Shown here: piece after piece, positions 3,271 to 31,021 of the stretch
Layout of the letters: each line of letters opens with the position of its first letter
Position numbering within the stretch: position 1 is the stretch's first letter
Assembly (NCBI RefSeq): GCF_003790525.1
Contig: NZ_CP033635.1
DNA from: Escherichia coli
Lineage (GTDB): Bacteria; Pseudomonadota; Gammaproteobacteria; Enterobacterales; Enterobacteriaceae
DNA length: 64,000 bases
Reading direction: 5' to 3' (one strand)
Program-made: the position numbers and the translations under genes
Notes under the pieces: model-generated
What the model was told of the DNA's origin: nothing
Database searches by the model: none
Seen by the model: only the letters and a program-made list of their open reading frames with translations

Positions 3271-4062
3271 ATGGGTAAACTCACGGGCAAGACAGCACTG
3301 ATTACGGGCGCATTGCAGGGAATTGGCGAAGGAATTGCCAGAACTTTTGCGCGTCATGGCGCAAACCTAATCTTGCTGGATATCTCCCCTGAGATCGAAA
3401 AGCTGGCGGACGAACTGTGTGGTCGTGGTCATCGCTGTACGGCGGTTGTCGCCGATGTGCGTGACCCGGCGTCGGTCGCCGCAGCTATCAAGCGTGCGAA
3501 GGAAAAAGAAGGGCGCATTGATATCCTGGTGAATAACGCAGGCGTTTGTCGTCTGGGAAGTTTCCTCGATATGAGCGATGAAGATCGCGATTTCCATATT
3601 GATATCAATATAAAAGGCGTATGGAACGTCACGAAGGCGGTGTTGCCGGAGATGATTGCCCGCAAAGATGGTCGCATTGTGATGATGTCTTCAGTCACTG
3701 GCGATATGGTGGCCGATCCGGGTGAAACGGCGTATGCCTTAACGAAAGCGGCGATTGTTGGCCTGACTAAATCGCTGGCGGTGGAGTACGCGCAGTCTGG
3801 TATTCGCGTTAACGCCATCTGCCCCGGATACGTTCGCACGCCAATGGCGGAAAGCATTGCCCGCCAGTCGAACCCGGAAGATCCAGAATCGGTGCTGACT
3901 GAAATGGCGAAAGCAATCCCGATGCGTCGCCTCGCCGATCCGCTGGAAGTCGGCGAACTGGCGGCCTTCCTCGCATCGGATGAATCCAGCTATTTAACCG
4001 GTACACAGAATGTGATTGATGGCGGCAGCACACTGCCGGAGACGGTTAGCGTCGGCATCTGA
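3271..4062 (+). CDS. ucpA: Short-chain dehydrogenase/reductase (furfural resistance oxidoreductase)
   Basis: 263 aa from MGKLTGKTALITGALQGIGEGIA... with Rossmann TGxxxGIG motif; internal ATG of track ORF 3205..4062. Confidence 0.9.
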   Translation: MGKLTGKTALITGALQGIGEGIARTFARHGANLILLDISPEIEKLADELCGRGHRCTAVVADVRDPASVAAAIKRAKEKEGRIDILVNNAGVCRLGSFLDMSDEDRDFHIDINIKGVWNVTKAVLPEMIARKDGRIVMMSSVTGDMVADPGETAYALTKAAIVGLTKSLAVEYAQSGIRVNAICPGYVRTPMAESIARQSNPEDPESVLTEMAKAIPMRRLADPLEVGELAAFLASDESSYLTGTQNVIDGGSTLPETVSVGI

Positions 4063-27413: not shown

Positions 27414-28829
27414 ATGAAAATCAAAACTCGCTTCGCGCCAAGCCCAACAGGCTATCTGCACGTTGGCGGCGCGCGTACTGCTCTTTACTCTTGGCTTTTT
27501 GCACGTAACCACGGCGGTGAGTTCGTGCTGCGTATTGAAGACACCGATCTTGAGCGTTCCACGCCGGAAGCTATCGAAGCCATTATGGATGGCATGAACT
27601 GGCTGAGCCTGGAGTGGGATGAAGGTCCGTACTACCAGACCAAACGTTTTGATCGCTACAATGCGGTGATCGATCAGATGCTGGAAGAGGGCACTGCTTA
27701 TAAATGCTATTGCTCTAAAGAGCGCCTGGAAGCGCTGCGCGAAGAGCAAATGGCGAAAGGTGAGAAGCCGCGTTATGACGGTCGCTGCCGCCACAGCCAT
27801 GAGCATCACGCTGATGATGAACCGTGTGTCGTGCGTTTTGCTAACCCGCAGGAAGGTTCTGTTGTTTTTGACGATCAGATCCGTGGTCCGATCGAATTCA
27901 GCAACCAGGAGCTGGATGATCTGATTATCCGTCGTACCGATGGTTCTCCAACCTATAACTTCTGTGTAGTGGTTGACGACTGGGATATGGAAATCACGCA
28001 CGTCATCCGTGGTGAAGACCATATCAACAACACGCCGCGCCAGATCAACATCCTGAAAGCGCTGAACGCGCCCGTACCGGTTTACGCGCACGTTTCTATG
28101 ATCAACGGTGATGACGGTAAAAAACTGTCCAAACGTCACGGGGCGGTCAGCGTAATGCAGTATCGTGATGACGGTTATTTGCCAGAAGCACTGCTGAACT
28201 ATCTGGTGCGTCTGGGCTGGTCCCACGGCGATCAGGAAATCTTCACTCGTGAAGAGATGATCAAATACTTCACTCTGAATGCCGTCAGCAAATCTGCCAG
28301 TGCGTTCAACACCGACAAGCTGCTGTGGCTAAACCATCACTACATTAACGCACTGCCGCCGGAGTATGTGGCTACCCACTTACAGTGGCACATCGAGCAG
28401 GAAAATATCGATACCCGTAACGGCCCGCAACTGGCTGATCTGGTAAAACTGCTGGGTGAACGCTGCAAAACGCTGAAAGAGATGGCACAGACTTGCCGTT
28501 ATTTCTACGAAGATTTTGCTGAGTTCGATGCCGACGCCGCGAAAAAACATCTGCGTCCGGTAGCGCGTCAGCCGCTGGAAGTGGTTCGTGACAAACTGGC
28601 CGCGATTACTGACTGGACCGCTGAAAACGTTCATCACGCTATTCAGGCGACGGCGGATGAGCTGGAAGTGGGTATGGGTAAAGTTGGTATGCCGCTGCGT
28701 GTCGCCGTTACCGGTGCGGGGCAGTCTCCGGCACTGGACGTTACCGTTCACGCGATCGGTAAGACCCGCAGTATCGAGCGTATCAACAAAGCGCTGGCTT
28801 TTATTGCGGAACGCGAAAACCAGCAGTAA
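27414..28829 (+). CDS. gltX: Glutamyl-tRNA synthetase
   Basis: 471 aa, [30 protein letters not shown] with HIGH-type motif and KLSKR (KMSKS) motif. Confidence 0.97.
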
Positions 28830-28848
28830 TTAGCGCATAAAAGATAAA

Positions 28849-28877
28849 CGGCAGGAGAAATACCCCTGCCGTTTTTT
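28849..28877 (+). terminator. Rho-independent terminator of gltX
   Basis: cggcagg-agaaataccc-ctgccg followed by tttttt. Confidence 0.65.
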
Positions 28878-28939
28878 ATTTATCCGGTGCGCCGTAAAAC
28901 CCCGTCCTTCAGGGCGGGGATATAAGGCGCGGTTTTCCA

Positions 28940-29356
28940 CCTGACCAGGTGTTTGCTGTTGTTCAATGTATTGGCGGATGACGGATATTGGCGCACCTCC
29001 GCAGCTACTGGCAAAATAGCCAGGACTCCACAAAACGCCTTTGTAGTAATACCTGACTGCAATATCTGGTCGATCTCGTCGCAGTCACCTACCCGATACG
29101 CCTTTGAGGCTGTTTACCAGACTGGATATCGCCAGTTTGGGAGGATAGTTAATTAACAAATGGACGTGATCTGGTTCGCCATCCATTTCAACCAGTTCAG
29201 CTTCAAAATCAGCACATACATTTGAAAAGTAAGTGCGTAGTTTTTCTGTCGCGTCATGGTCAAAAATCTGGCGTCGGTATTTGGGACAAAGACCAGGTGA
29301 ACATGCATCAGGAAAACACAATGCCTTCCACGCCGGATATCGGTTTCTTTTTTCAC
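28940..29356 (-). pseudogene. tnpA: IS200/IS605-family HUH (Y1) transposase TnpA, inactivated by a frameshift and an in-frame TGA; extent approximate
   Basis: N-terminus ...RHCVFLMHVHLVFVP is in one frame and ...PKYRRQIF...EMDGEPDHVHLLINYPPKLAISSLVNSLKGVSGR in another (1-bp shift at about 29285); TGA at 29082-29084, after which the same frame continues LWSPGYFASSCGGAPISVIRQYIEQQQ (catalytic Tyr region). Confidence 0.7.
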
Positions 29357-29378
29357 AGACCAAAATATAATTTGACCT

Positions 29379-30589
29379 GTGAAACGACTACAGGCATTTA
29401 AATTCCAGTTAAGACCCGGTGGTCAACAGGAGCATGAAATGAGGCGCTTCGCAGGCGCATGTCGTTTCGTTTTCAATCGTGCTCTGGCGCTTCAGAATGA
29501 GAATCATGAGGCCGGTAATAAATACATCCCTTACGGGAAAATGGCTTCCTGGCTGGTTGAGTGGAAAAACGCCACTGGAACGCAATGGCTTAAAGATTCT
29601 CCCTCACAGCCATTGCAACAGTCACTGAAAGACCTTGAGCGGGCTTACAAAAACTTCTTCCAGAAGCGGGCTGCTTTTCCCCGATTCAAAAAGCGGGGAC
29701 AGAATGATGCATTCCGCTACCCGCAGGGCGTTAAGCTCGATCAGGAAAACAGCCGTATTTTTCTGCCGAAACTGGGCTGGATGCGCTACCGGAACAGCCG
29801 TCAGGTCACGGGTGTTGTGAAAAATGTCACGGTCAGCCAGTCCTGCGGTAAGTGGTACATCAGTATTCAGACAGAAAGTGAAGTATCAACTCCGGTTCAC
29901 CCTTCAGCATCAATGGTCGGGCTGGATGCCGGCATGGCTGAACTTGCCACGCTGTCAGATGGGGCACAGTCTTTGAGCCTGTAAACAGTTTTCAGAAAAA
30001 CCAGAAGACGCTGGCGAGACTTCAGCGACAGTTAAGCCGCAAGGTCAAATTCAGCAATAACTGGAAGAAGCAGAAACGCAAAATACAGCGACTGCATTCC
30101 CGTATCGCAAATATCCGCAGGGACTACCTTCACAAAGTCACAACGACCGTCAGCAAAAACCACGCAATGATAGTCATTGAGGATTTGAAGGTCAGCAACA
30201 TGTCAAAGTCAGCAGCGGGTACGGTCAGCCAGCCGGGGCGCAATGTCCGGGCAAAATCAGGTTTAAACCGTTCGATACTGAATCAGGGCTGGTATGAAAT
30301 GCGCCGCCAGCTTGAGTACAAGCAGCTCTGGCGTGGCGGTCAGGTGCTTGCTGTTCCGCCAGCGTACACAAGCCAGCGTTGCGCGTGCTGTGGTCATACA
30401 GCGAAAGAAAATCGCCTGTCACAAAGTAAATTCAGATTCCAGGTATGTGGATATACAGCGAACGCCGATGTAAACGGCGCTCGTAACATTTTAGCGGCGG
30501 GGCACGCCGTTCTTGCCTGTGGAGAGATGGTGCAGTCAGGCCGCCCGTTGAAGCAGGAACCCACCGAAATGATTCAGGCGACAGCCTGA
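29379..30589 (+). pseudogene. tnpB: IS200/IS605-family TnpB (RuvC-like, OrfB_IS605 plus zinc ribbon), split by a single frameshift near 29970
   Basis: ORF 29379..29984 ends ...GLDAGMAELATLSDGAQSLSL; the next frame continues FEPVNSFQKNQKTLARLQRQLSRK... into ORF 30167..30589 (...IVIEDLKVSNM...CACCGH...C..C...NGARNIL); joined length about 403 aa. Confidence 0.8.
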
Positions 30590-30628
30590 ACGTAGCAGGG
30601 ATCCTCGTCCTTCAGGGCGTGGAGGATG

Positions 30629-31021
30629 TCAAGCTGATTCATCTATGTCGAGACGAGCAAGGAAATTACGAATTCCTTCGCGTGACAAAAATTGCGCAAC
30701 TTTTTCCCGCTCACTGTGAGTCATGTTGTCTATTGCGCTGATGATTTGCCGATAAGCAGGAGTGCGAATCCCCGGTGCGTATTCGGCAAGGGGTTCTTCG
30801 GCTTCCAGAAGCATCGGCGTGTTATGGAAGGCTGGCGTGTTCTGAATAAACTCGCAAACTTGCGTATCGACCAGAATAAGTCTGGCACGACCGCCTTTCA
30901 CGCCGGGAAATTTTTCCGTTTTCCAGCCTTTTTCTCTGATCCAACGGTTAACAGTTTGTTTAGCCACACCGAGGCATTCAGCCAGTTCTTCGGTGGTCAT
31001 TTTATTGCGTAATCTTTTCAT
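30629..31021 (-). CDS. yfeD: Small HTH DNA-binding protein (DUF1323 family)
   Basis: 130 aa (MKRLRNKMTTEELAECLGVAKQTVNRWIREKGW...), paralogous to the adjacent yfeC. Confidence 0.85.
   Translation of the reverse strand: MKRLRNKMTTEELAECLGVAKQTVNRWIREKGWKTEKFPGVKGGRARLILVDTQVCEFIQNTPAFHNTPMLLEAEEPLAEYAPGIRTPAYRQIISAIDNMTHSEREKVAQFLSREGIRNFLARLDIDESA

Follow-up and report, generated by a model that had tools for sequence, protein, structure and literature searches.

A decayed, non-autonomous IS609 copy with an IS-derived yfeD stop codon in the gltX-yfeD interval of Escherichia coli

The genes gltX and yfeD are separated by a spacer of 51 bp in E. coli K-12 (NC_000913.3), while about 1.75 kb of further DNA stands between them in the genome considered here (contig NZ_CP033635.1, assembly GCF_003790525.1). 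The question raised by this locus is what the additional DNA is, and which of its parts, if any, could still act. The stretch analysed, called the window below, is 64,000 nucleotides long, and all positions are counted from its first letter. A first-pass annotation of the window had described the insert as a decayed IS200/IS605 element with divergent tnpA and tnpB genes, absent from K-12 at this place. This description was borne out: the K-12 site is empty, and the similarity of the two genes to TnpB and to Y1 transposases is very strong. Moreover, the element can be named more exactly as IS609.

By comparison with Eco-15, in which the site is empty, with K-12 and with seven other copies, the IS609 copy in the gltX-yfeD interval was delimited at 28884-30632, that is, 1,749 bp. 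The limits first proposed, 28897-30628, marked the right region and were off by 13 and 4 bases. In 1,749 bp there are 39 differences (97.8% identity) from the K-12 element located between ydcL and ydcO, which is recorded in NC_000913.3 as "insertion sequence:IS609" of 1,748 bp with insQ and the tnpA pseudogene yncK, and which was delineated here at the same length of 1,748 bp; the name IS609 is taken from this RefSeq annotation. On these comparisons, the insert is almost certainly a copy of IS609, a member of the IS605 group of the IS200/IS605 family, with divergent tnpA and tnpB, both of them broken. A query of 1,811 bp including the element is matched at 100% over its full length in at least 24 complete-genome records, among them SMS-3-5. 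Because the identical stretch of SMS-3-5 carries pseudogene calls from PGAP in RefSeq, two in number (tnpA "frameshifted; internal stop; missing C-terminus" and tnpB "frameshifted"), the feature is already known and annotated. It is an insertion sequence already in the catalogues, here in a decayed copy that is not autonomous, and a new mechanism is not called for by the evidence.

The insertion site and the two ends are described by the following features:

28846-28883, no strand assigned: gltX terminator hairpin and T-tract (terminator-like hairpin at 28846-28874; the tract ends in TTAT at 28880-28883)
28884-28943, plus strand: IS609 left end (homology to other copies begins at 28884; a 16-nt spacer, then the hairpin)
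30603-30632, plus strand: IS609 right end (hairpin at 30603-30622, then the 10 nt AGGATGTCAA)

The terminator hairpin and T-tract come after the end of gltX at 28829, and yfeD lies on the minus strand; in empty-site strains, this hairpin sits between the two convergent genes. In the alignment to Eco-15, the empty site reads CGTTTTTTATTTAT followed directly by GCTGATTC, and the point of entry of IS609 lies between the two; in a second reading of the same site, CGTTTTTTATTTAT is followed by GCTGATTCATC. At each of the five chromosomal sites that were examined, the left end is directly preceded by TTAT. When occupied and empty alleles are compared, both at gltX-yfeD and at ydcL-ydcO, there is no target duplication, and the insertion after TTAT is clean.

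Both ends carry hairpins with a common sequence, as had been noticed from the letters alone. The 14-mer CGTCCTTCAGGGCG occurs in exactly two places, 28903-28916 and 30606-30619, both on the plus strand (search with up to two mismatches permitted; chance expectation 0.34 matches). The left-end hairpin, CCCCGTCC-TTCA-GGGCGGGG at 28900-28919, starts 16 nt past the insertion point and as single-stranded DNA folds at -13.8 kcal/mol (z = -2.9). The right-end hairpin, CCTCGTCC-TTCA-GGGCGTGG at 30603-30622, is weak alone (T.T mismatch, z = -0.96) and near-perfect in the K-12 IS609 copy and in Klebsiella relatives; the cleavage motif TCAA at 30629-30632 closes the right end. Homology runs as far as ..GTCAA both for the other E. 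coli copies and for the plasmid relatives (Klebsiella, and pD223 of E. coli); at the same point the Salmonella and E. albertii plasmid copies have ..GTCAC. In summary, imperfect subterminal hairpins lie in the same orientation at both ends without terminal inverted repeats, as is characteristic of IS200/IS605 elements, and, judged by this anatomy, the ends are those of a "peel and paste" element such as IS608.

IS608 of Helicobacter pylori is the mechanistic model of the IS200/IS605 family, and the comparison with it is close. Like IS609, it combines a Y1 HUH transposase with tnpB and has imperfect subterminal hairpins without inverted repeats; it reportedly also enters 3′ of a fixed tetranucleotide with no duplication, and its TCAA end is likewise said to lie 10 nt past the foot of the right hairpin. 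The two differ in the target (TTAT in IS609, reportedly TTAC in IS608), in the left spacer (16 nt against a reported 19 nt) and in the arrangement of tnpA and tnpB, which is divergent in IS609 and co-directional in IS608. In the literature searched, biochemistry on the ends of IS609 was not found.

Between these ends lie two pseudogenes:

28944-29356, minus strand: tnpA pseudogene, Y1 HUH transposase (transpos_IS200 profile, homologue alignment and allele comparison)
29379-30589, plus strand: tnpB pseudogene, insQ-type RNA-guided nuclease (alignment to K-12 insQ; RefSeq "frameshifted")

The gap between them is 15 bp by the list of open reading frames, or 22 bp when counted from the GTG start at 29356. 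The repaired translation of tnpA scores 146.5 bits against NCBIfam NF033573 transpos_IS200 (cut-off 55), over profile positions 2-126 of 126, and its motifs are present, the HUH motif as HVH in "DHVHLL" and the catalytic Tyr in "RQYIEQQ". The three lesions proposed for it (1-bp frameshift, TGA and lost stop) are all real. The first is a 1-bp deletion after 29284. The second is an in-frame TGA at 29085-29087, where CV261 has TTA (Leu), at a position that is an invariant Leu among homologues. In the third, the native stop has become CAG (28941-28943), and the frame continues through the left end, which it overlaps, into the flank; the homologues of Salmonella, Proteus, Photorhabdus and Klebsiella are 138 aa long with the C-terminus ..QQQTPG/S/D. 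The window copy is accordingly not an autonomous element with an intact transposase.

Of the three tnpA lesions, two are found in IS609 copies at other loci as well as in the window copy. The stop loss, with read-on through CAG, occurs in every E. coli IS609 copy examined. The TGA was seen at four different loci, and a 56-mer containing it is exact in 2,597 records. The 1-bp deletion is present at two loci, and is carried by E7-1N7, XJ6.1 and the copy in yajI of SMS-3-5. An intact IS609 tnpA was found in none of the IS609 copies examined.

For tnpB, the repaired translation reaches 383.8 bits against NCBIfam NF040570 guided_TnpB (cut-off 100), with Pfam matches to PF01385, PF07282 and PF12323 (OrfB_IS605, Cas12f1-like_TNB and HTH_OrfB_IS605), and residues 3-376 of the product match the ISDra2 TnpB structures 8BF8/8EXA with E = 3.6e-52. 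The gene had been taken to carry a 1-bp frameshift near 29970. It is indeed frameshifted, with the same effect on the frame, but the lesion is a 2-bp insertion of GG slightly to the left, giving GGGG at 29961-29964 where intact copies have GG (GAT GGG GCA in the window against GAT GGC ACA in intact copies). The insertion causes a premature stop at 29982-29984, and the resulting +2 frameshift after codon 195 parts RuvC-I (GLDAG) from RuvC-II/III (VIEDL, NADVN). In addition, a G>T change at 30438 (C353F) removes a zinc-finger Cys, and among the copies compared it is present in the window copy alone. A continuous TnpB open reading frame with the RuvC D/E/D residues and the CxxC..CxxC zinc finger is therefore not found in the window copy.

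Since the tnpB lesion falls in a G-run (GGGG against GG), of the kind in which long-read assemblies are error-prone, the frameshifts could be put down to sequencing or assembly errors in homopolymer runs, with both genes really intact. The records speak against this. The identical GG allele is found in 30 independent complete-genome records, the full 1,811-bp query is identical in the 24 or more records given above, the 1-bp deletion of tnpA recurs in E7-1N7, XJ6.1 and the yajI copy of SMS-3-5, and the 56-mer with TGA is exact in thousands of records. Sequencing error is scarcely conceivable here and is effectively refuted already.

Programmed frameshifting occurs in other insertion sequence families, for example IS1 and IS3. 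By analogy, the tnpB lesion might be a site of programmed frameshifting and the tnpA TGA a site of read-through, with functional proteins made from both genes. However, the allele without the GG insertion is the norm for tnpB, with 96% matches in ~4,700 records, while exact matches to the GG allele are limited to 30 of ~20,000 records; GAT GGG GCA is without a slippery heptamer; the TGA takes the place of TTA, the codon of a Leu which does not vary among homologues; and the C353F change comes on top of the frameshift. Recoding is accordingly regarded as extremely improbable. With true lesions as the preferred reading, it is shown by the comparison of alleles that the window copy, as its genes are now read, encodes neither transposase nor nuclease, so that by itself it cannot be expected to move or to cut DNA.

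The population data add a history to this state. The gltX-yfeD site is occupied in ~10% of 5,426 complete genomes (533 counted by the left junction, 535 by the right junction); over all sites, IS609 is found at ~12,000 places in these genomes. Among the copies at gltX-yfeD, those of CV261 and 57_142493 lack the TGA in tnpA, and their tnpB is intact. In E7-1N7 the tnpA deletion is that of the window, but tnpB is frameshifted by another change, the loss of 1 bp near 29612. As the two tnpB frameshifts are different, tnpB was lost at least twice at gltX-yfeD, and recently. The window and CV261 differ at 45 positions in 1,750 bp of the element and at 100 in 2,234 bp of the left flank. Two independent insertions at one TTAT were considered for this pair and are unneeded, the left flank having diverged at least as much as the element; the divergence fits one old insertion, which would be enough for both copies.

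Outside this site, SMS-3-5 is the most informative genome. Its ydcL-ydcO site is empty, with the ydcL region inverted, and it has a second IS609 in yajI, which differs from the window copy at 23 positions (1.3%) and has the same tnpA lesions together with an intact tnpB (WP_000826423.1). The same dead tnpA at different loci means that dead-tnpA copies spread between sites, which may have happened either through a helper transposase or through gene conversion. The order of events is affected accordingly, in that a lesion common to several loci may stem either from mobilisation in trans or from gene conversion.

The sequence of events proposed here would begin with the entry of IS609 by single-strand "peel and paste", directly 3′ of the TTAT at the end of the terminator T-tract. 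The tnpA gene would already have been dead in the lineage, as suggested by the stop loss in all E. coli copies examined and by the TGA and 1-bp deletion held in common with the yajI sister copy. Afterwards, tnpB would have been lost recently in a small clade, by the GG insertion and the zinc-finger change C353F. The ends might still be usable in trans by a helper TnpA, and intact InsQ from a second IS609 copy might load the guide RNA.

At its right end the element meets the neighbouring gene:

30629-31021, minus strand: yfeD (the IS609 right end supplies its TGA stop, 30629-30631 on the plus strand, and base 3 of the final Ala codon)

The landing point is within the last codon and the stop of the convergent yfeD, and the stop was rebuilt by the terminal TCAA. 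The gene ends in ..TCA GCA TAA at the empty site and in ..TCA GCT TGA when occupied, the T and the TGA deriving from the TCAA of the right end. The right-end hairpin had been said to abut the yfeD stop codon; the right end does reach the stop, but its bases TCA (30629-30631) are the stop itself. YfeD has 130 aa with or without the insertion, and one accession, WP_000826499.1, is common to the empty Eco-15 and the occupied CV261. The effect of the insertion on the host is probably near-neutral.

The K-12 IS609 (insQ b1432, yncK b4578) resembles the window copy in the divergent layout, the end hairpins, the TTAT target and the TCAA end, in the stop loss and in-frame TGA of tnpA, and also in that its right end gives the stop of a convergent gene, ydcO in K-12 and yfeD in the window. 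It differs in its locus, ydcL-ydcO, and in its intact tnpB (402 aa), whereas the window copy has the tnpB frameshift with C353F and the extra 1-bp deletion in tnpA. A universal "stop-codon-donating" design of IS609 was considered and rejected, the trait being found at only two of five chromosomal sites and at one plasmid site.

The overlap of the yfeD stop with the right end invites the thought that the insertion was co-opted to regulate yfeD/yfeC, by antisense transcription from tnpB or the right end, or by replacement of the yfeD terminator. Any read-through transcript would be antisense to the yfeD 3′ end, and 1.75 kb now lie between yfeD and the terminator hairpin which it has in common with gltX where the site is empty. 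On the other side, the insertion is confined to about a tenth of genomes, the YfeD protein is unchanged, and the element is decaying rather than conserved, with independent tnpB frameshifts in two lineages. Furthermore, the promoter scan found no promoter-like plus-strand site near the right end, that is, no sigma-70-like site able to drive a right-end transcript; it gave only two minus-strand matches, below the shuffled expectation, and is uninformative either way. Co-option of the insertion for yfeD/yfeC is very improbable, and the reading preferred remains a decayed IS609 copy with little effect on its neighbour.

The part of the element which deserves separate attention is the region from which a guide RNA would be made:

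30462-30632, plus strand: putative omega-RNA (guide RNA) scaffold (tnpB 3′ end and right end; sub-threshold Rfam matches, fold and covariation)
30633-30648, plus strand: would-be 16-nt guide of a read-through omega RNA, GCTGATTCATCTATGT (from TnpB-system architecture)

In the ISDra2 system, whose TnpB (8BF8, 8EXA, 8H1J) is of the same fold family as the tnpB product of the window, the tnpB 3′ end and the right end together provide the scaffold, the flank provides the guide, and the target-adjacent motif equals the transposon target motif; the same design is expected here. In TnpB systems the guide directly follows the right end on its 3′ side, and 30633-30648 is therefore taken as the putative guide; this sequence, GCTGATTCATCTATGT, is antisense to the last yfeD codons. 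Compared with ISDra2, the window copy has a broken nuclease gene and lacks one zinc ligand, its presumed motif is TTAT instead of TTGAT, and the guide RNA is putative.

A family-level guide-RNA match was found in Rfam neither at the gathering thresholds nor at E <= 1. A search of 401 nt (30300-30700) returned three matches, all sub-threshold (E = 0.013-0.043) and all on the plus strand: RAGATH-18 at 30516-30559 (25.4 bits, gathering threshold 44.9), HgcC at 30526-30643 (20.1 bits, threshold 50) and sot0042 at 30462-30623 (16.3 bits, threshold 88). All of them belong to RNA families tied to tnpB 3′ ends (PMC4615843, PMC11061315). The features which the window has in common with sotRNA, HgcC and RAGATH-18 (RF02656, RF00062 and RF03064) are the UUCA tetraloop, the GGAGGAxGUCA tail and the CCUGUGGAG...GAAGCAGGAA stem; being below their gathering thresholds, the region is not a member of these families by Rfam criteria. 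The stem and the terminal UUCA-loop hairpin with GGAGGAUGUCA are highlighted by the Rfam alignments, and the putative scaffold accordingly contains a RAGATH-18-like stem at 30516-30559 followed by this hairpin, which corresponds to the structure that Gomes-Filho et al. 2015 (PMC4615843) call the "RE-like tetraloop". The region folds somewhat more stably than its shuffles (z = -2.2), and double-sided (compensatory) changes affect 4 of 70 pairs in eight homologous right ends, which represent only about three independent lineages; this variation is too small for a consensus structure to be proven from it. Gomes-Filho et al. 2015 also report, from RNA-seq of E. coli K-12, a transcript covering the tnpB 3′ end. 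The literature found on IS609 consists of surveys, a mutation-accumulation study and one enzymology paper that lists IS609 TnpB among purified proteins; searched for IS609 with TnpB or omega RNA, it yielded no dedicated account of an IS609 guide RNA or target-adjacent motif.

Over the end hairpins and the final ~190 nt, only three substitutions separate the window copy from intact-tnpB copies, and the putative guide-RNA scaffold is accordingly regarded as intact in sequence. It is shown in this way that the cis-acting parts, namely both end hairpins and the putative guide-RNA scaffold, survive at the level of sequence. It might be supposed that the protein-dead copy still works in cis, its guide RNA being loaded by the InsQ/TnpB of a second copy and aimed at TTAT + GCTGATTCATCTATGT, that is, at the empty gltX-yfeD allele, and its ends being mobilised by a helper TnpA. 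The near-identity of these parts would agree with such a role. So would the intact yajI tnpB (WP_000826423.1) of SMS-3-5, whose gltX-yfeD element is 100% identical to that of the window, the same dead tnpA at different loci, which fits mobilisation in trans, and the K-12 transcript over the tnpB 3′ end (PMC4615843).

Other observations weigh against it. With no intact IS609 tnpA in the copies examined, the excision that creates the target of the guide should not occur, and IS609 transposition was not seen in K-12 mutation-accumulation lines (PMC5009759). Gene conversion also accounts for the lesions common to several loci, and the second IS609 copy is known from SMS-3-5 and not certain for the genome of the window. 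Function in cis is considered unlikely. A more specific form of it, in which the orphan guide RNA and the yajI InsQ would cut incoming empty-site DNA (TTAT + GCTGATTCATCTATGT) during recombination or horizontal transfer and so favour retention of the element, is decidedly improbable. If it were true, an element without either of its own genes would be retained through a nuclease supplied by a second copy.

The correct label for the region is a non-autonomous IS609 copy with an IS-derived stop codon in yfeD, which is of little importance beyond annotation. Taken across genomes, E. coli offers at this one site an allele series consisting of the empty site, the element with intact tnpB and the element with two independent tnpB frameshifts. 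Such a series could provide an inexpensive natural test of the importance of TnpB and its guide RNA after loss of the transposase.

In three separate insertions, the right end of IS609, which finishes in TCAA, provides a convergent gene with its TGA stop codon, because the target TTAT reads as ATAA on the opposite strand. The stop codons taken from TCAA are as follows:

Window 30629-30632: stop of yfeD
L008 (the fetched K-12 locus, NC_000913.3) 3906-3909: stop of ydcO
L009 (a fetched locus on a P1-like IncY plasmid) 1980-1983: stop of a hypothetical gene

For example, in K-12 ydcO, CGA TAA is converted into CGA TAT TGA at the insertion, that is, one Tyr is added. The pattern is not universal, and stop donation is absent at the yajI, TetR-pseudogene and yeaQ sites.

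As for the flanking genes, two deeply diverged yfeD alleles exist in E. coli: over window 30633-30900, about 1,900 records show an identity of only 80-90%, far below the usual core-genome identity, and BL21(DE3), which is among them, shows 85.6%. To the left of the element, across the tRNA cluster and gltX, strains sharing the insertion differ by 3-4.5%.

In the 3′ region of the element (tnpB 3′ end and right end, window 30462-30643), no threshold-level match was found in Rfam 15, and three archaeal or IS607-type guide-RNA families match weakly, below threshold, at the same place. It appears that a dedicated enterobacterial guide-RNA family is missing from Rfam. When window 30150-30561 was compared with the plasmid matches H157, H158 and H160, some tnpB genes on E. 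coli and E. fergusonii plasmids were found to be 95-97% identical to the window only up to 30561 and divergent beyond it. Both the last ~9 codons and the right end are different in these relatives, so the 3′ part of their guide RNA would presumably be different as well.

SMS-3-5 carries an element identical to the window copy between gltX and yfeD, and its yajI is interrupted by a second IS609 (NC_010498.1 457131-458877, i.e., L020 17132-18878) whose tnpB (WP_000826423.1) is intact. Between ydcL and ydcO this strain has no IS609 (L015 25767-25800), and its ydcO is split by an IS4.

The window was also compared with loci L003, L016, L017, L019 and L020 for the mutations that kill tnpA. The in-frame TGA (window 29085-29087) is present in IS609 copies at four chromosomal loci, and the 1-bp deletion (window 29284/29285) at two. 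Since the same mutations recur at different loci, IS609 copies seem to have spread after the death of tnpA, and a helper transposase or gene conversion would have mediated this spread. The tnpA homologues outside E. coli IS609 are 138 aa in length, and the native stop (window 28941-28943) is lost in every E. coli IS609 copy examined (all fetched loci). In most of these copies tnpB is still intact, which suggests that tnpB is retained in E. coli IS609 without a standard transposase.
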